A stretch of DNA of 34,427 bases from a virus: the UHGV virus genome UHGV-0118447. One strand, written 5' to 3'. Below are positions 2,837-10,031 of this stretch, piece by piece (the first letter of the stretch is position 1; every line of letters begins with the position of its first letter). Under the pieces are notes generated by a model. The model ran no database searches, was not told the origin of the DNA, and saw nothing but the letters and a program-made list of their open reading frames with translations. The position numbers and the translations under genes are program-made.

Positions 2837-3268
2837 TTAGTCCTCACCTTTCTGTTGCACTACCGGAACCGATAAATCGACGCACCAGGAGATAACGCCG
2901 AATTGATCATCGTTCTGCGCTTCACCCCAAACGTAATATTTTGATCCTGGCCGACCCATTGCCGGGTCAAATACTTCTATGCCGCGTTCTGCCGTTAACG
3001 ACATCAGAATCTGATGCAGGCCGCCTTTGATGTTCAGTGACGGAACGGTCAGGAAGTAAATAAACCCGTAAAGCAATTCGGCCTTGCGCTGGCTTCCGTA
3101 AAAATACGGGATTTTGTAATAATCCAGCGCGTCGTCGAGCCAGTCTGTTTTGTCGTGGAATTTCTGATGCCAGCGTTCCACTACCTCATCGACAGGTTGA
3201 CCGGCAACCATTGCAACGCAGGTAGCCATGCAGGTGTTAAATGTTGGCTGCATTTGATGTTGAAGCAT
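2837..3268 (-). CDS. Putative papain-fold cysteine peptidase-like protein (143 aa)
   Basis: Q-x5-C (QPTFNTC) near the N-terminus, then His (GGLHQIL) and Asp 17 residues later (VFDPA), the spacing of a papain-like triad; start ATG overlaps upstream stop (TGATG). Confidence 0.5.
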   Translation of the reverse strand: MLQHQMQPTFNTCMATCVAMVAGQPVDEVVERWHQKFHDKTDWLDDALDYYKIPYFYGSQRKAELLYGFIYFLTVPSLNIKGGLHQILMSLTAERGIEVFDPAMGRPGSKYYVWGEAQNDDQFGVISWCVDLSVPVVQQKGED

Positions 3269-3879
3269 CACTCCCCCTTACCGATGCCGGCGGCGCGGTC
3301 TATGCGTTCGATTTCAGCCAGAATTAAAGCCCCTGCTTTTACCAGGTTGCGACGGCGGGCATTTGGCTTCCACCATGAAGCATCCCAAGGCCACCCCCAC
3401 GGCTTGCCACCATTGCGGTTAACAGTTTCTGTTTCGTTTATGTAACAAACCGCCGCCATTGCCAGTTCCCCGTTGCAGTGTTCGTCATCATGCTCTGGCA
3501 TCCACCCCTCAACCGATTGTTGCCGCTGGCGCTCTGCTATCACATCCAGAATTGCAGGATTGAATGCACGCGCTTCCAGTTCAGCAATCCGCTCCTCATA
3601 CCGAGCGCCAACGGAAACGGCTTTATGGAAGGCTTCGCACCATTTTGACGATTGCGCCTGCATCTTCTCCAGCTCATCCAGCAGCGCCAAGACGGTAGCC
3701 GGATTGGCTGCGGCGATAAATGCAGCATCACGCGCTTCGTTTTCACTGAATACCATGGCTATTTGCTCATGGTTCACGCCGTCAGTGGAGTAAATCTCAT
3801 CGTCGAACTCAACAGCCCACCGGCCTTTCGTCGCCTTCTCCGCCGCTTCACGCAGAGCCTGGTAATTAATCTCGCTCAC
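3268..3879 (-). CDS. Ead/Ea22-like protein with C-terminal putative dATP/dGTP pyrophosphohydrolase-like domain
   Basis: N-terminal [16 protein letters not shown] motif typical of Ead/Ea22-like proteins; probable GTG start at 3879 preceded by AGGAGG (the ORF track starts at 3900). Confidence 0.6.
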
Positions 3880-4043
3880 TGGTTGCCTCCTTTGCGCCAC
3901 ATCGCATTCAGATATTTGTTGTCATTAACAGAACCGAAACTCTTTCTCTTAAGCAATTCCTCTCTCGATGGCATTGGCTTTACGCGTTGGCGAATAATCA
4001 TTTCTGCCGGAAGAATGCCGGGATTGTATGCAAGTCCTCTCAT
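3876..4043 (-). CDS. Small hypothetical protein (55 aa), translationally coupled to the downstream gene
   Basis: ATG at 4043 with AGAGGA SD; stop TGA overlaps the GTG start of the next gene (GTGA); below the ORF-track size cutoff. Confidence 0.4.
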
Positions 4044-4059
4044 GGTAAATTCCTCTTTG

Positions 4060-4374
4060 TTAATTTATTCGTATGCCTGCTCTTTCTTCATCGAGTTTTT
4101 TTAGCTTGTATCGCATAGCTCTTACTGAATAAATTGAGCGGCAGGTTGCAATTGCTATTTCTTCTGCGGAGAACTTACCGAAAAGTGATACTTCGGCTCT
4201 TGTCCATCGTCTTCCACGAAGTCGGCTAACAATGTCAGCTCCAATCCTTGTTGCTTTCGCCATTACTGCTTTTTCAGTCCTTTCCAGTTTTTCAGCGATA
4301 ACTTCAACTGGCATTGTCGCCGCTACTTCGCGCAAGAAATCGACTTCCCATTTCTCCCATGGAGTCTTTTTCAT
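4060..4374 (-). CDS. Hypothetical protein with internally duplicated helical motif (104 aa)
   Basis: Two similar W-x-E-V...E-I-A segments suggest a tandem HTH/Myb-like fold; ATG start. Confidence 0.5.
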
Positions 4375-4385
4375 AGGCGATACCG

Positions 4386-4868
4386 TTATTTGATAAGAAG
4401 TGAAGGTTTCCCAACTTTGAGTTGAGCACCGGGAATATTTATTCCTGCTTTTAGTTGGTGTTTGATTGCCAGTTTGTCGGCTTTAATTGTCGTTTCAAAC
4501 TCAACGTATTCAGGAGGAAGGGCGCTTGAGTCGATGATTTCTACAATTTCTGACGGTTTGCGGATTGTTACCTGGTGAATACCTGCTCGAATATTTTTCT
4601 TGCCAACCATTTCAAGCGATGACGCTATATATGATTTGATGCTGTCAATCTTATTTTGGATTACTGCGGCTCGCTCATTCAGTGACTTTGCCTCTTCCTT
4701 GAGGCGTTCAGCATAACCAGATTCATTTTTAATGACGGAAAGAAGTTGCTCTATTTTATCGGTAAATTCTCCTTCCATGCCTTCTATTGTGTCAGCAATC
4801 ATCTCTGGTTCTAAATCTGAATCCATCAATTTTGCGTATTCATTGGCAATTTCATACAGTTTGCTCAC
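4386..4868 (-). CDS. Gp157-family protein (RecT-associated)
   Basis: Coiled-coil protein directly downstream of RecT; probable GTG start at 4868 with GGAGG SD (track start 4874 is TTG). Confidence 0.6.
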   Translation of the reverse strand: MSKLYEIANEYAKLMDSDLEPEMIADTIEGMEGEFTDKIEQLLSVIKNESGYAERLKEEAKSLNERAAVIQNKIDSIKSYIASSLEMVGKKNIRAGIHQVTIRKPSEIVEIIDSSALPPEYVEFETTIKADKLAIKHQLKAGINIPGAQLKVGKPSLLIK

Positions 4869-5763
4869 TGGCAACCTCCAGTTTCGCTTTGCATTCTATG
4901 TAAATGGCTTGTACGTTCTGCTGCAATTTCATTCCAGACGTCAGGCGATATGCTTCTGCAAAATATCGCTTCAAATCATCCATGTTTTCTGCCTGAGCCA
5001 TTTCATCGCAAAGAAGTTGTACTTTATCCATTATTTCCTGCTGGCGTTTCCGTTCATCTTCGCGGATATCTTCCTCTGATTTGTGCGGCATAACTGGTTC
5101 AGTCCACACACCTTCTTCTTCGTTTAGTACGTGAATAGCACTATCAAGACGTGATGCCTTAGGCCAATACTTGCTTGCACGCTTTACGACCGTCTTTCGC
5201 GCCATCTCATTCCAGTGATTTACCCATGGTCCTTTATCGCTGAATGCCGCCTTGCTTGTTTTCCTTACAGCCTCAATTTCAGCCAGACTCATCTCTTCCG
5301 TTAGATAATCACCTGCTGGCGTCTTAACTGTGCAGTAAACGCCAACGATATCACCACGATCACCGAAGGCGTTGTATTTATGGGTTGGTGCTTTATCAAG
5401 CCCGTTTGACTCATAGGTATCGTTAGCATGAACAAGTTTTGCCTGACCCCATGAGATAACACCAGACTCCATTGCAATATGGAGCAATCCCATATAACTG
5501 ATATCAAGGCACACCATGCCGTCGCGCGGAACCAGATAAGCCAGTTTGCTGGCCGGGTTTAAGGTGATACCGATCGCCGCAACATTGATGATGGCGTTCT
5601 GTGCGCTGGTTGGATTTGCCAGTGCTGTTTTAGCCAGGTAATCATTTTTCTGGAAATACTGAATTGCAAACTGGCTTTCCTTAGCCCATGTCACCGTCTG
5701 TTCAGTCAATGCTCCGCAGAATAACTGCTCTTGCTGTTTAACGAATTCAACGATATTGCTCAT
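4852..5763 (-). CDS. recT: RecT-family single-strand annealing recombinase
   Basis: 303 aa; GPWVNHWNEMARKTVVKRASKYWP region matches the conserved RecT core. Confidence 0.85.
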   Translation of the reverse strand: MSNIVEFVKQQEQLFCGALTEQTVTWAKESQFAIQYFQKNDYLAKTALANPTSAQNAIINVAAIGITLNPASKLAYLVPRDGMVCLDISYMGLLHIAMESGVISWGQAKLVHANDTYESNGLDKAPTHKYNAFGDRGDIVGVYCTVKTPAGDYLTEEMSLAEIEAVRKTSKAAFSDKGPWVNHWNEMARKTVVKRASKYWPKASRLDSAIHVLNEEEGVWTEPVMPHKSEEDIREDERKRQQEIMDKVQLLCDEMAQAENMDDLKRYFAEAYRLTSGMKLQQNVQAIYIECKAKLEVASEQTV

Positions 5764-6071
5764 GCTGCTTCTCCAAAAATGTGTCTGCGTTTGAATATTG
5801 CGAAGGCATATTCAGCCTTAACTCTTTCGGTTATTGCATCCCAGAACCATTCAGCGGCTTTTTCCTGATAGTCACAGTCATCATCTTCCAGCCAGTCGAT
5901 AGCGTCCTTAGTGTGTTCATCTGGTTTATATGAGCGAAGCATTTCGCTTATTGGGTCGCAACGTTTGCAGAGGCGATCAACTTCACTGTTGATTCGTTCG
6001 TAATCTTCATCAGTAAAACTTGCGATTATTTGCGATATTTCACGCTTATCATTCAGAGTCAGAATCATCAT
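5760..6071 (-). CDS. Acidic hypothetical protein (103 aa) coupled to recT
   Basis: ATGA stop/start overlap with recT; strongly acidic; occupies the position held by gam/abc anti-nuclease genes in related phages. Confidence 0.55.
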   Translation of the reverse strand: MMILTLNDKREISQIIASFTDEDYERINSEVDRLCKRCDPISEMLRSYKPDEHTKDAIDWLEDDDCDYQEKAAEWFWDAITERVKAEYAFAIFKRRHIFGEAA

Positions 6072-6156
6072 CTTTCTCCTGTTCTTTGTGCTGATTGAGC
6101 ATTTTGTTCATCTGACGAATGAATTCTTCGTCTGACCATGTATCCGCAATACTCAT
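6049..6156 (-). CDS. Small acidic ORF (35 aa), uncertain
   Basis: ATG-initiated ORF whose start overlaps the upstream stop (ATGA); very short and overlaps the next gene by 23 nt. Confidence 0.25.
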   Translation of the reverse strand: MSIADTWSDEEFIRQMNKMLNQHKEQEKDDDSDSE

Positions 6157-6317
6157 TGCTTAACGACCTTAATCAGTTGAGTTACCTCAATGATGTCCTC
6201 GCATAAATCCGAGTACTGAAATGGGCCGCAGTTGTGAGAGTTAGTGCGTCTGGCGAAAGCCATTCTTCTAAGCTCTTTCATGGCTTCTTCCAGTTCCTCG
6301 TAAGTTGGTTTTTTCAT
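6153..6317 (-). CDS. Small hypothetical protein (54 aa) at the kil position
   Basis: ATG overlaps the cIII-like stop (ATGA); lies between cIII and the recombination genes. Confidence 0.4.
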   Translation of the reverse strand: MKKPTYEELEEAMKELRRMAFARRTNSHNCGPFQYSDLCEDIIEVTQLIKVVKQ

Positions 6318-6484
6318 GGCTGTACCTTTTGATTCAGAAACTCAACAAGACGATCCAGCAAGCTCTTAACGCGAGGTTGTTTAAAGTCTGCTCCGGTTAA
6401 AATATTTTTTCGTGAATGCTGTACCGATAAAATCGGGTTGAAAGGGCGAACCGATGCCGCCCCTGCAATAGCGAACTGTTGCAT
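6314..6484 (-). CDS. cIII: CIII-like protein (56 aa)
   Basis: MQQFAIAG...SLLDRLVEFLNQ resembles lambda CIII (MQYAIAG...RLIDILNQ); AAGGAG SD; the longer ORF-track N-terminus overlaps a terminator and is rejected. Confidence 0.55.
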   Translation of the reverse strand: MQQFAIAGAASVRPFNPILSVQHSRKNILTGADFKQPRVKSLLDRLVEFLNQKVQP

Positions 6485-6548
6485 AGGATGCTCCTTCTGT
6501 TTGATTGCATAACGAAAACGCCTCAAGTGAAGCGTTATTGGTATGCAT

Positions 6549-6575
6549 ATAAAAAAGCCCTCACACTGGAGGGCG
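6549..6575 (-). terminator. Intrinsic terminator (tL-like) upstream of cIII
   Basis: Minus-strand GCCCTC-CAGTGT-GAGGGC hairpin followed by TTTTTT. Confidence 0.6.
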
Positions 6576-6678
6576 AAGAAGATTTCCAATAATCAGAACA
6601 AGTCGGCTCCTGTTTAGTTACGAGCGACATTGCTCCGTGTATTCACTCGTTGGAATGAATACACAGTGCTTATTCATA

Positions 6679-7149
6679 CTAATAAAACACCCAATTTTCT
6701 GTTTCTTGGTTGTGTCCAAAGTTATATTCAATATCTGGTGTTGATGTATCAATATTCTTCATCCCATCAACAAGAGTTGATACAACAGCCAAATCTTGTT
6801 TGATTCTCATCAAATGGTATTTCTTCCGGCGCAATAAACTTTCAATGGCAAGTTTCTTCGTCGGGAACGCAAAAGATCTTTCTGCATTTTTTGCTACTTT
6901 CTTAATTGCATATCTATTTCTCCTTTGTTTCCATTCCTGTAACCACTGATTTGGTGCTGGTTTAAAATTAACAATCCAATGCGCAGGAACCAACCATGCA
7001 TAATGCTCTGTCTGATGAAAAGCTATATATTGAAGTGCGAATATTTTGATTCCATCTTCTTCAACTGTCGCTTGGAATCTCCAGAAAACAGGCATTCCCT
7101 CATGTTCAGTTTCTGATTCAGGAAAAGGTACGCTCCATGATTTTGTCAT
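6679..7149 (-). CDS. Hypothetical protein in AT-rich island (156 aa)
   Basis: ATG ORF; local GC clearly lower than flanks; followed by a 9-bp-stem hairpin (about 6637-6664) and the tL terminator. Confidence 0.6.
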   Translation of the reverse strand: MTKSWSVPFPESETEHEGMPVFWRFQATVEEDGIKIFALQYIAFHQTEHYAWLVPAHWIVNFKPAPNQWLQEWKQRRNRYAIKKVAKNAERSFAFPTKKLAIESLLRRKKYHLMRIKQDLAVVSTLVDGMKNIDTSTPDIEYNFGHNQETENWVFY

Positions 7150-7152
7150 ATA

Positions 7153-7440
7153 TTACTCATCTCCAAGGGCTTTGCTGATTGCTGCGATACCTTTATTAAC
7201 AGCTCCATACCATTCTGGATATGTTGTCGTTGTTCTATTTTTGGTTTGCTTAAGTAATAACTGAAGTGCTTCGAGAAGGTCAGGAGCTGCTGCTATCAGT
7301 AGCGCATCCTCCCTTTCATTTCTTGTTGCTGCTTCAATGTATGTGTCACCAATCGTCACACCATGGAACGTAGTCATCATCTCGTTGACGTTTCTAACCG
7401 TGTACTTCCATTTACCAGGCGTACCCTTAAACTCTTTCAT
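7153..7440 (-). CDS. Ead/Ea22-like N-domain protein (about 95 aa)
   Basis: GKWKY...AAAPDLLEALQ parallels the N-domain of the 3268-3879 gene; ATG at 7440 preferred over the GTG at 7446. Confidence 0.55.
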   Translation of the reverse strand: MKEFKGTPGKWKYTVRNVNEMMTTFHGVTIGDTYIEAATRNEREDALLIAAAPDLLEALQLLLKQTKNRTTTTYPEWYGAVNKGIAAISKALGDE

Positions 7441-7471
7441 ATCCACCTCTGTTGTTTATGCCAAAGCAAAT

Positions 7472-7714
7472 TTAACCATCAACAAACTCTTCTGGTAATT
7501 TATCAACCAGTTGATGACTTATTATCAGCCATTTGCCATCCTTCGTTTCGTATGCATATTTCTGGTCTTTTATCATCAGGTGTTCGGCTACTGCCCTAAC
7601 TGCCTGATCGGTGACATCTTCTCTCTTTCCTACCCACATTCCTTTTTCAGTGTTTAATGTTCCTTGAAAAATACGACCGCTTAATGGGCTTGCGCCCATA
7701 GTTTTTACTCTCAT
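7472..7714 (-). CDS. Hypothetical protein (80 aa)
   Basis: ATG ORF in the pL operon downstream of N. Confidence 0.5.
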   Translation of the reverse strand: MRVKTMGASPLSGRIFQGTLNTEKGMWVGKREDVTDQAVRAVAEHLMIKDQKYAYETKDGKWLIISHQLVDKLPEEFVDG

Positions 7715-7770
7715 GTATCAGCTCTCAAATAAGTGTTTTGCTGCGAAAATAAATCCGCTTAAGTTACCTG

Positions 7771-7908
7771 TTATTTATCCCACCAAGTTCCGTATCTATC
7801 TATCCAGTTACACCAATCGTCGACACTCCATTTTGTTGTGTCGCATTTTGGCAATTGGCATGAATATCTACCTTCTTTGTAAAGTCGGCGTTTGATTTTC
7901 TTGAGCAT
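7771..7908 (-). CDS. Small Cys/Trp-rich protein (45 aa) immediately downstream of N
   Basis: ATG 7 nt after the N stop with GAGGTGG SD; sequence MLKKIKRRLYKEGRYSCQLPKCDTTKWSVDDWCNWIDRYGTWWDK; below the ORF-track cutoff. Confidence 0.4.
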   Translation of the reverse strand: MLKKIKRRLYKEGRYSCQLPKCDTTKWSVDDWCNWIDRYGTWWDK

Positions 7909-7915
7909 GACCACC

Positions 7916-8248
7916 TCAATCGTAATAAGCTGGAATTGATTTTCCGCGTTGCTTCTGGCGGCCTGAACAGGTCACACCCATTTCACTACGTGGCTTGCTG
8001 TACCATGTGCGCTGATTCTTGCGCTCAATACGTTGCAGGTTGCTTTCAATCTGTTCGTGGTATTCAGCCAGCACTGTAAGGTCTATCGGATTCAGTGCGC
8101 TTTCTACTCGTGATTTCGGTTTGCGATTCAGCGAGAGAATAGGGCGGTTAACTGGTTTTGCGCTTACCCCAACCAACAGGGGATTTGCTGCTTTCCATTG
8201 AGCCTGTTTCTCTGCGCGACGTTCGCGGCGGCGTGTTTGTGCATCCAT
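7916..8248 (-). CDS. N: Antitermination protein N (lambda-type)
   Basis: MDAQTRRRERRAEKQAQWKAAN arginine-rich motif and lambda N-like remainder; start at the internal ATG of the track ORF. Confidence 0.9.
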   Translation of the reverse strand: MDAQTRRRERRAEKQAQWKAANPLLVGVSAKPVNRPILSLNRKPKSRVESALNPIDLTVLAEYHEQIESNLQRIERKNQRTWYSKPRSEMGVTCSGRQKQRGKSIPAYYD

Positions 8249-8420
8249 CTGGATTCTCCTGTCAGTTAGCTTTGGTGGTGTGGTAGGTGGGAGACCCATT
8301 TCGACCTGCTTCGGCCGACTTCAATTCGGCAATAGTTCCGCAGGCCTCGCCGCTTTACGTGCGACATATTCCCATCCATGAACCCTTCACCACACCCCAA
8401 AGCCTTCTGCTTTGAATGCT

Positions 8421-8451
8421 GCCCTTCTTCAGGGCTTAATTTTTAAGAGCG
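8421..8451 (-). promoter_or_regulatory. nutL (boxA CGCTCTTAA and boxB GCCCTGAAGAAGGGC)
   Basis: boxB hairpin at about 8421-8435 and boxA at about 8443-8451, read on the minus strand, upstream of N. Confidence 0.8.
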
Positions 8452-8490
8452 TCACCTTCATGGTGGTCAGTGCGTCCTGCTGATGGCTAA

Positions 8491-8519
8491 ATAGTACGAT
8501 TTGTACTTTATCGAGTCAA
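8491..8519 (-). promoter_or_regulatory. pL promoter with overlapping operator OL1
   Basis: Minus strand TTGACT-17 bp-TACTAT; dyad AGTACAAATCGTACT inside the spacer. Confidence 0.6.
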
Positions 8520-8582
8520 TACAAAATGTTCTATATATAATTAGTTTTTTATAACGCTTTGTATTTAATGGGTTTATATTTT

Positions 8583-8614
8583 GGAAAAAGAAAACCCGAC
8601 GCTAAGGTCGGGTT
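8583..8614 (-). terminator. Intrinsic terminator directly after cI
   Basis: Minus-strand AACCCGAC-CTTAGC-GTCGGGTT hairpin followed by TTTTCTTTTT, about 30 nt after the cI stop. Confidence 0.6.
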
Positions 8615-8644
8615 ATTGTTGTGTGTTTTAGAGTTGTGAGGCTG

Positions 8645-9304
8645 TTAACTAAATGTCTCTTCAGGCCACTGGCTGGCGATAACTTTCCCTACTACGGAAC
8701 AGCTATCATTGCATGGAATCATTGGATATTGCGGGTTTAGTGGCTGTAGGAACACCTGACCGCTATCCCTGATCAGTTTCTTGAAGGTAAACTCGTCACC
8801 ACCAAGTCTGGCTATGCAGAAATCACCTGGCTCAACAGCCTGCTCAGGGTCAACGAGAATTAACATCCCGTCAGGAAAGCTTGGCTTGGATCCTGTTGGC
8901 GCGGTCATGGAATTACCTTCAACTTCAAGCCAGAACGCACAATCACTGGCTTTTTTGGTTGTGCTGACCCATCTCTCCGCATCACCTTTGGTAAAGGTTC
9001 TAAGCTCAGGCGAGAACATCCCGGCCTGAACATGAGAAAAAACAGGGTACTCATATTGTTTTTTAACGGGGGCAGATGAGTATTCGCCAACAGGTGAAAA
9101 TGTACCGTCGTGGTTGAATGAGACGTTATCAATACCAAGGTATTTAAACACCACACCAATCTCGTCAAGAGATGGATGACGAGATCCGCGCAACCAGTGA
9201 CCAATTCCACCCTGCGTCATACCAAGCTCTTCAGCTAACTTCTCTTGAGTTATGCCGAGCTCTTTCATTCTGGATCTAGCCAGTTCATACCATTTCATTT
9301 TCAT
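8645..9304 (-). CDS. cI: CI repressor (LexA/S24 autopeptidase type) with lambda-like C-terminal domain and a different N-terminal HTH
   Basis: C-terminal roughly 150 aa match lambda CI from memory; N-terminal HTH ([23 protein letters not shown]) is not lambda; start at MKMKW, track N-terminal extension rejected. Confidence 0.9.
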
Positions 9305-9417
9305 ACCCTTATTATTACGCTCTGTACTAAAACCATCCATGCACAAGATGTATTTTTTTTGTTTGCATTCTAAAAGTACATATCGTATTATTGTTTCATG
9401 GTTACTATGGAGGGCAT
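9305..9417. promoter_or_regulatory. OR region: pR (TTGCAT-17-TATTAT), OR1-like site AAGTACATATCGTATTAT, and pRM-proximal site on the opposite strand
   Basis: -35 at about 9363-9368 and -10 at about 9386-9391; operator core nearly identical to the pL operator; related half-sites near 9311-9330. Confidence 0.55.
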
Positions 9418-9633
9418 ATGAGCAACCTACGAAAATATCGAGAGTCACTGAATATCTCTCAAACAACACTTGCTAAGGCTGTTGGATGCACACAGGGGGC
9501 TATCGGACATTGGGAATCTGGTCGTCGCTTCCCAGACCTTAAAACATGCCGTGCTCTTGTTGAGTGCCTAAACAAGTTAGGCGCAAAAGTCAGTCTTGAT
9601 GACGTGTTCCCGCCGGAACACAAAGCCGCTTAA
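9418..9633 (+). CDS. cro: Cro-like repressor (XRE-family HTH, 71 aa)
   Basis: GGAGGG SD 4 nt upstream; HTH related to that of the cI N-domain; divergent from cI across the operator region. Confidence 0.8.
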
Positions 9634-9641
9634 GACATTCC

Positions 9642-9673
9642 CGCTCTTACACATCCCAGCCCTGAAAAAGGGC
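9642..9673 (+). promoter_or_regulatory. nutR (boxA CGCTCTTA and boxB GCCCTGAAAAAGGGC)
   Basis: boxA at about 9642-9649 and boxB at about 9659-9673, just after the cro stop. Confidence 0.8.
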
Positions 9674-9752
9674 ATCAAATTAAGCCACACCTATGGTGTA
9701 TGCATTTATTTGCATACATTCAATCAATTGTTATCTAAGGAAATACTTACAT

Positions 9753-10031
9753 ATGCAACTTACAAGTACTCGCAAGAAAGCGAATGCAATTACAAGCAAC
9801 ATCCTGAATCGAATTGCTGTACGTGGTCAGCGAAAGGTTGCCGACGCGTTAGGGATTAATGAATCGCAAATTTCGCGATGGAAAGACAGCTTCATCCCCA
9901 AAATGGGAATGCTTCTGGCTGTTCTTGAATGGGGTGTTGAAGACGAGGAGTTGGCGGAACTGGCTAAGAAAGTAGCCAGAATGCTGACAAAAGAAAAAGC
10001 CCCGAAGAACGGCGAATTCTTCGAGGCCTGA
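9753..10031 (+). CDS. cII: Transcriptional activator CII (divergent from lambda CII)
   Basis: 92 aa; SQISRWK...IPK...MLLAVLEWGV core shared with lambda CII; upstream leader is lambda-like. Confidence 0.85.
   Translation: MQLTSTRKKANAITSNILNRIAVRGQRKVADALGINESQISRWKDSFIPKMGMLLAVLEWGVEDEELAELAKKVARMLTKEKAPKNGEFFEA
9786..9799 (-). promoter_or_regulatory. CII-binding direct repeats (TTGC-N6-TTGC) of a pRE-like promoter
   Basis: Plus strand GCAATTACAAGCAA inside the 5' end of cII, same relative position as lambda pRE. Confidence 0.5.

Follow-up and report, generated by a model that had tools for sequence, protein, structure and literature searches.

A mosaic gene slot between N and the PreS/tL2a element of a lambdoid prophage, with four small candidate early genes as its cargo

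The DNA between the antiterminator gene N and the terminator tL2a in the early-left (pL) operon of lambdoid phages is a classical home of host-interaction genes, ral and sieB among them. In lambda, the interval between ea10 and ral encodes an Hfq-dependent small RNA (sRNA), first called LPR1 and now PreS, which terminates at tL2a; the sRNA occurs as species of about 88 and 68 nt during the lytic cycle, boosts translation of host dnaN and aids phage DNA replication, and is conserved across thousands of genomes (bioRxiv 10.1101/2024.10.31.621285). Here we describe the corresponding region of a prophage, the UHGV virus genome UHGV-0118447, whose 34,427 nucleotides we refer to as the window. Positions 6590–7915 hold four small open reading frames (ORFs), which we call orfA to orfD. 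The original prediction, made from the bare sequence, saw in them an AT-rich, horizontally acquired and N-antiterminated island, and a prime place for an undescribed defence or anti-defence function. We are highly confident of the anatomical part of our account: the locus, lying between N and tL2a, is the variable slot already known from lambdoid pL operons. The best explanation overall, which we consider probable but no better than that, is that its variable cargo here comprises four soluble early genes whose products bind host macromolecules during lytic growth.

In the window's ORF list, four minus-strand frames of 45, 80, 95 and 156 amino acids (aa) lie between a lambda-type N gene and a hairpin followed by a terminator. 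They are where the original prediction placed them, and all four have conserved homologues. Read along the minus strand, the parts of the locus are as follows.

8491–8519, minus strand: pL-type promoter (TTGACT-17-TACTAT), found by consensus scan, with a downstream leader identical to that of lambda
8421–8451, minus strand: nutL, with boxA CGCTCTTAA (8443–8451) and boxB GCCCTGAAGAAGGGC (8421–8435), identical to the annotated lambda NutL
7916–8248, minus strand: N antiterminator of lambda type, 110 aa from MDAQTRRRERR (PF11438 N36, E 2e-26; phrog_271), with a 110-aa gene also called in contig L006
7771–7908, minus strand: orfA, 45 aa from an ATG 7 nt past the N stop, DUF5484 (PF17583), phrog_1871
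7472–7714, minus strand: orfB, 80 aa, DUF7446 (PF24233), phrog_1578
7153–7440, minus strand: orfC, 95 aa from ATG, PF27050 (Phage_P22_Y8K6), phrog_1273
6679–7149, minus strand: orfD, 156 aa, basic and soluble, phrog_1636, equivalent to phi24B vb_24B_11c and Stx2-86 gp56
6632–6669, minus strand: long hairpin with 17-nt arms and a 4-nt loop, on the 5' side of the PreS locus and at the upstream edge of a conserved "boundary sequence"
6551–6640, minus strand: PreS/LPR1 sRNA homologue ending at tL2a (stem 6557–6574 plus U-tract), from lambda alignment and terminator scan, the 5' end being approximate and taken from the published size of about 88 nt
6517–6536, minus strand: another terminator-like hairpin, whose lambda homologue lies immediately 5' of cIII
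6314–6484, minus strand: 56-aa ORF in the cIII position, the first gene past the slot, with a lambda-like leader, ribosome-binding site (RBS) and first codons (MQ.AIAG), divergent thereafter

The block lies on the pL strand, 3' of nutL and N and 5' of the cIII-position gene, and the same layout is found in L006 and L009. This is the position occupied by sieB, orf28 and ral in lambda and by the corresponding genes of P22 and Sf6, so the first reading of it as a place where lambdoids carry accessory genes was correct. Gaps between the genes are short (56 nt between orfA and orfB, 31 nt between orfB and orfC, 3 nt between orfC and orfD), and Shine–Dalgarno motifs are clear for orfA, orfC and orfD and weaker for orfB.

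Between conserved flanks, the cargo of the slot differs among lambda, P22, Sf6, CurroJimenez, Stx2-86, mEp213 and the loci L007–L011. Named phages carry the following.

Lambda, after N: sieB (opposite strand), orf28 and ral, then PreS/tL2a and ea10
P22, after gene 24: sieB/esc, ral, orf78, orf87 and 17
Sf6, after N: gp36, ral and gp34
CurroJimenez, after N: a 54-aa gene, orfD, an orfC-type gene and two further small genes
Stx2-86, phi24B and Stx2 phage I, after N: orfD alone

No phage record and no complete Escherichia coli genome searched held 80% or more of positions 6300–8300 in one place; parts of these 2 kb match 2,271 of the 5,426 complete E. coli genomes. The cassette itself recurs in three metagenomic or draft contigs, at 100% (L006), 99.7% (L013) and 98.6% (L010) identity. 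Local alignments break at 6546/6551, 6669/6675, 7151/7152, 7465, 7724 and 7912, which are gene boundaries. An identical orfC sits in eight contexts with changing neighbours: it is preceded by a DUF7446 gene or by genes of 55, 60 or 149 aa, and followed by orfD or a gene of 62 aa. Since the genes keep different partners in different contexts and the breakpoints fall at gene boundaries, they behave as independent modules and form no fixed operon. The description of the block as horizontally acquired holds well for a cargo that is mosaic and varies even among close relatives. We considered whether orfC and orfD, only 3 nt apart, might be a coupled two-gene module and rejected the idea: orfC occurs without orfD in L008, orfD stands alone in Stx phages, and their order is reversed in CurroJimenez. 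Catalogues already contain this type of locus, its boundary RNA and terminator, and the four protein families. Beyond the candidate genes and the identity of PreS, what we have here is ordinary lambdoid mosaicism.

The long hairpin and intrinsic terminator said to bound the block downstream are present, but they are not an anonymous boundary. On the strength of the alignment we identify them with the conserved lambda PreS/LPR1 sRNA–tL2a element. The hairpin begins 9 nt past orfD and is identical in lambda, Sf6, Stx2-86 and CurroJimenez, and terminator-like sites lie on the minus strand at 6574–6557 and 6536–6517. From the hairpin to the terminator stem (6557–6669) the window departs from the lambda ral–ea10 intergenic DNA by one substitution, and only the tails past the stem differ. 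As in lambda, the element is on the pL strand and closes with a GC-rich hairpin and a 3' U-tract, at the location reported for PreS (10.1101/2024.10.31.621285). The context of the U-tract is GGGC-UUUUUU here and GGGC-GAUUUUUU in lambda. The neighbours differ too: upstream is orfD here and ral in lambda, downstream a cIII-type ORF here and ea10 in lambda. We found no ea10 homologue between tL2a and the cIII position, where tL2a adjoins the lambda-like hairpin and RBS that precede cIII. The segment 6548–6680 forms a strongly structured RNA (folding z-score –5.05). An Rfam scan of 5500–9800 at E≤1 gave no match, and Rfam has no model for PreS. In Sf6 the same DNA is annotated as "tL2A" and "boundary sequence bsq4". 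The element is common to Sf6, Stx2-86, phi24B, CurroJimenez, mEp213 and lambda, irrespective of the gene that precedes it, and it serves as a recombination joint. With PreS as the boundary of the block, any cloning or deletion of the block must keep the PreS RNA or control for it.

A scan of genome collections for exact matches to the PreS core also hit contigs of unrelated taxa, among them Pseudoxanthomonas, Shewanella, Pseudomonas, Neobacillus and Kitasatospora (L027–L030, L033–L039, L041–L042 and L045). Several of these contigs measure about 48.4–48.5 kb and have names that indicate low coverage; against the window they give exactly the alignment that lambda gives. They look like lambda control DNA contaminating assemblies, and the scan, consisting mostly of such contamination, was not used for surveying cargo diversity. 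In phage mEp213 (L048, JQ182733 29282–34557) a pair of N genes is annotated in tandem and there are two PreS-like segments, an arrangement that looks like a duplication of the N-slot module or a junction of two early-left regions.

The block had been called clearly more AT-rich than the rest of the prophage, and so it is. GC content over 6590–7915 is 39.4%, against a window mean of 51.2%. In sliding windows only 0.36% of those of equal length are as AT-rich, and the global GC minimum starts at 6611, making this the lowest-GC 1.3-kb stretch of the window. The contrast should be read in its setting, as GC content is low, at 40–46%, throughout the early-left region (about 4000–8000).

How these genes might be expressed follows from what lies around them on the minus strand. 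The consensus scan gave pL as the sole promoter-like site near the block, with none inside it, and no terminator-like site between 8593 and 6574, hence none from pL to tL2a. With no terminator-like site and no internal promoter-like site on the way, N, orfA to orfD and PreS are probably carried on one early transcript. We propose that this transcript is made from pL on induction or infection and would be silent in a repressed lysogen. N would be needed to read past tL2a into cIII and the recombination genes, but not for expression of the block, and calling the block N-antiterminated claimed more than its anatomy asks for. Within the first codons of orfB, at 7684–7699, is a perfect GC-rich palindrome with a 6-bp stem (ATGGGC-TTGC-GCCCAT). 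It is terminator-like on the plus strand only, the T-run of the coding strand being too distant for a canonical terminator. A bidirectional terminator-like hairpin (AACCCGAC...GTCGGGTT) lies at 8593–8614, just downstream of the cI-type repressor gene (8645–9469, minus strand), and is probably the end of the repressor transcript.

All four predicted proteins are hydrophilic, lack membrane segments and have isoelectric points (pI) of 6.6–9.4. They had been described as unrecognised. That stands for function, which none has been assigned, but not for family, because each belongs to a catalogued Pfam DUF or PHROG family. None of the four matched an NCBIfam model, and sequence searches of the PDB gave no genuine match for any of them, whether to a solved anti-defence inhibitor or to any other structure.

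OrfA is a member of DUF5484, matching PF17583 at E 1e-12 with 47.8 bits against a gathering cut-off of 27. It is 98% identical to Sf6 gp36, has tblastn matches in 925 phage records, mostly of T-even types, and was aligned with RB51 gp55.4; its identity to gp55.4 of T4-type phages is 42–56%. The protein is basic, and its description as Cys/Trp-rich fits orfA itself, which has three Cys and five Trp. The alignment has three of its five Trp invariant, along with several charged residues, but the Cys are not conserved. A zinc finger was considered for orfA and rejected, its three Cys having no conserved counterparts in T4-type homologues. OrfB belongs to DUF7446 (PF24233, E 1e-28, 99.3 bits against a gathering cut-off of 24.1). 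It is 90% identical in the P22-like phage ST-35 and 47–57% identical in about 270 records of large virulent phages of Ackermannviridae type that infect Salmonella, Escherichia, Klebsiella and Dickeya. OrfA and orfB are shared between temperate phages and virulent ones (T4-like and Vi1-like, respectively). In the literature we found no reported function for T4 gp55.4, and no paper mentioning DUF5484 or DUF7446.

OrfC belongs to PF27050 by the precomputed Pfam assignment of an identical protein (P0001), and it is homologous to P22 orf78 (BLASTP E 4e-7), which occupies the same slot. The family, with 424 homologues, has an unusual pattern of variation. The N-terminal 60 residues are near-invariant and end in LIAAAPDLLEAL, residues from about 61 to 84 are hypervariable in sequence and variable in length, and a conserved tail, AAISKALG, follows. 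Recombination joints within the gene account for part of this pattern. An Ead/Ea22-like N-domain had been suggested for this protein. A weak profile similarity does exist: aligned by hhalign with the window's own Ead_Ea22 protein, orfC gives a probability of 27.8% and E 6e-4 over 60 columns, with a common K.T.G.W / NE..DA..IAAA.P pattern. Pfam Ead_Ea22 (PF13935) gave no match at E≤0.1, and BLASTP is not significant against either lambda Ea22 (E 0.57) or the window's protein (E 2.2). That protein, a true member of the Ead/Ea22 family (PF13935, E 8e-20), is encoded at 3268–3900 on the minus strand, further along the same operon. Mimicry of RNA polymerase beta' by orfC was also considered and rejected: the PDB sequence match at E 0.03 has a per-domain E of 24, which is chance.

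OrfD matches phrog_1636 at E 7e-112 and no Pfam family. Its close family is narrow, comprising 33 clusters, all from Enterobacterales. The gene is found in 83 phage records, mostly of Stx1 and Stx2 phages, where it adjoins N, and it is present in most Stx phages of 933W type. Its phi24B equivalent, vb_24B_11c, is annotated as similar to HK97 gp45; we found no mention in the literature of vb_24B_11c or of the block's peptide strings. A profile search of 1.8 billion representatives brought in 87 relatives; the remote ones are mostly 105–160 aa long and about 20% identical. With 20 close homologues the AF2 model of orfD had a pLDDT of 54; with a 76-sequence alignment this rose to 95.4, with a pTM of 0.82. 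The model has three long beta-strands (19–55), short helices, a further strand (83–86) and a helix of 33 residues (98–130). Fold searches matched it to 12 predicted structures, those of uncharacterised proteins whose phages infect widely differing hosts, and to no solved structure. Conservation across the superfamily falls mainly on basic and hydrophobic residues (K...K....RFA..TK..A...L..RK). Its alignment has no catalytic-looking residue set, and a Pfam scan of its 76 members gave isolated noise matches only. The superfamily is confined to phages, of Enterobacterales, Vibrio, Rhizobium, Achromobacter and Cellulophaga. Remote relatives lie in prophage early regions, where small ORFs surround them and genes for DNA methylases, RecE/RdgC and integrase are close by. 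One of these, P0247 (L020 8603–8974), is part of a lengthy stretch of small ORFs without annotation in which a PF21825 "Sequestin" gene also occurs, a neighbourhood that would fit an accessory or anti-defence type. Of the searches suggested as a check on the original prediction, the profile searches of all four proteins and the structure searches of orfD lead to families of unknown function only.

What might such proteins do? They are small and soluble, carry no enzymatic signature, are shuffled among phages and in two cases have homologues in virulent phages, and host binding is the most economical reading of that combination. We suggest that orfA to orfD would act as stoichiometric binders of macromolecules of the host, or of a competing element, early in lytic growth, in host takeover or counter-defence, as Ral, Gam, Kil and CIII do. 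OrfD would be the best candidate for a binder of nucleic acid or of a DNA-transaction protein, given its conserved basic strand–helix region. OrfC, with a hypervariable segment between conserved ends, would be the best candidate for a binder that diversifies its specificity. The genes have no promoter-like sites of their own on the coding strand and no membrane segments, and two have lytic-phage homologues, so an early host-modulating or counter-defence role in lytic growth is favoured over exclusion by the lysogen. To this functional class, as distinct from the anatomy, we commit ourselves only tentatively, at rather less than an even chance.

Several points weigh against it. Our promoter and terminator scans used simple consensus sequences and would not pick up Rho-dependent terminators or weak promoters, that of sieB being an example. 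We found no functional evidence in the literature for the families of orfA to orfD. A homologue in a virulent phage is compatible with a role in excluding competitors and does not exclude one; T4 has exclusion genes of its own. The basic region of orfD is no more than suggestive, as is the hypervariable segment of orfC, and the variability of orfC may just reflect recombination joints within the gene, intragenic mosaic joints having been seen. We think it doubtful that any of the four proteins is the first of a new class of early counter-defence or host-takeover factors, orfD and orfC being the best candidates. Were it true of orfC, its hypervariable segment would serve to diversify specificity. 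Were it true of orfD, there would be a bearing on the biology of Stx-prophage induction, since orfD adjoins N in the clinically important Stx phages of 933W type. These are abundant families without assigned function, and their independent assortment, probable lytic-only expression and sharing with virulent phages make for a short and well-defined list of candidates.

The proteins could instead be housekeeping-type modulators of phage development, acting on replication, recombination, cell division or the lysis–lysogeny decision as do Kil, CIII, Ea22 and the genes between exo and xis. The company they keep speaks for this. They share an operon with cIII, a kil-position gene and a RecT module, the adjoining PreS sRNA boosts host DnaN for phage replication (10.1101/2024.10.31.621285), remote relatives of orfD lie beside DNA-transaction genes, and orfC bears its weak resemblance to the N-terminal part of Ead/Ea22. 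The sporadic, shuffled distribution of the genes argues against a core role, however, and many lambdoids do without all four, so we think this unlikely.

Defence of the lysogen, in which at least one ORF would be a superinfection-exclusion or abortive-infection gene analogous to SieB or Rex, is the less likely half of the original prediction of a defence or anti-defence function; counter-defence remains within the reading we favour. SieB does sit in this slot in lambda and P22, and the AT-rich, horizontally shuffled cargo resembles what defence islands often contain. But all four genes run in the same direction as pL, which is repressed in the lysogen, and the block offers no promoter-like site on their strand. 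None has a membrane segment, unlike SieB, and searches with the PADLOC-DB v2 defence models gave only noise-level matches over short stretches (E 0.018 and 0.0023). No SieB-type gene, that is, a membrane protein of about 190 aa on the opposite strand with its own promoter, was found in the block, where plus-strand ORFs are at most 79 aa long and have no Pfam match and promoter-like sites are no more frequent than chance. Taken with the virulent-phage homologues of orfA and orfB, this makes lysogen defence highly improbable.

We give just as little credence to restriction alleviation, with the cassette standing in for Ral against type I restriction–modification systems. The ral gene is indeed missing from this slot, though present in lambda, P22, Sf6 and ST-35, and the genes here are small and predicted to be expressed early. 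Yet no Ral family appears among the Pfam and PHROG matches of the four ORFs, which are to other families. In ST-35 both orfB and a gene of orfC type coexist with ral and hence do not stand in for it, and none of the proteins is strongly acidic in the way of the DNA mimics Ocr and ArdA. Finally, that the ORFs are non-functional remnants or chance frames in an AT-rich spacer, as their shortness, the composition of the DNA and the lack of functional annotation anywhere might suggest, is effectively refuted by strong family matches (E 1e-12 to 7e-112), full-length homologues that keep many invariant residues down to 54% identity, a confident, alignment-supported fold for orfD, RBS motifs at orfA, orfC and orfD, and homologues in distant phage groups.

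Past the slot, neither NCBIfam nor PADLOC matches the 56-aa ORF in the cIII position, and no Pfam match to it is on record (L006 and L009), whereas a normal PF02061 cIII is present at other loci; the beginning of this gene seems to contain a mosaic joint. Further on come small ORFs and genes of the RecT and Gp157 families. The small ORFs that separate the cIII-position gene from that for RecT are as follows.

6153–6317, minus strand: 54-aa ORF, phrog_32687, unknown function, in the lambda kil position with no Kil Pfam match
6049–6156, minus strand: 35-aa ORF, phrog_17766/2123, unknown function
5760–6071, minus strand: 103-aa ORF, phrog_3486, unknown function

Set against the known systems, the locus shares its framework with the N–tL2 region of lambda. 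It has the same position between N and cIII, an identical nutL and a lambda-like terminator-like hairpin upstream of cIII, and the DNA of N is 99.3% identical to lambda over 7992–8282. Here, however, orfA to orfD replace sieB, orf28 and ral, ea10 is absent so that tL2a abuts the cIII leader, and the prophage has neither an opposite-strand gene nor a terminator-like site after N. P22 and ST-35 share part of the cargo: orfC is homologous to orf78 in the same slot of P22, and ST-35 has its 90%-identical orfB followed by an orfC-type gene. Both differ in also carrying ral and sieB and in lacking orfA and orfD, and the antiterminator and terminator of P22 are different. In 933W-type Stx phages, phi24B and Stx2-converting phage 86, an orfD 98–99% identical to ours comes directly after N and is followed by PreS/tL2a; there it is the sole gene of the slot and N is of a different type, whereas here orfA to orfC precede it. 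A further likeness is to the cluster of small early ORFs 55.1–55.8 of T4, where orfA has its DUF5484 homologue in gp55.4, at the identity given above across T-even types; T4 is a virulent phage, and its gp55.4 gene lies between gene 55 and nrdH.

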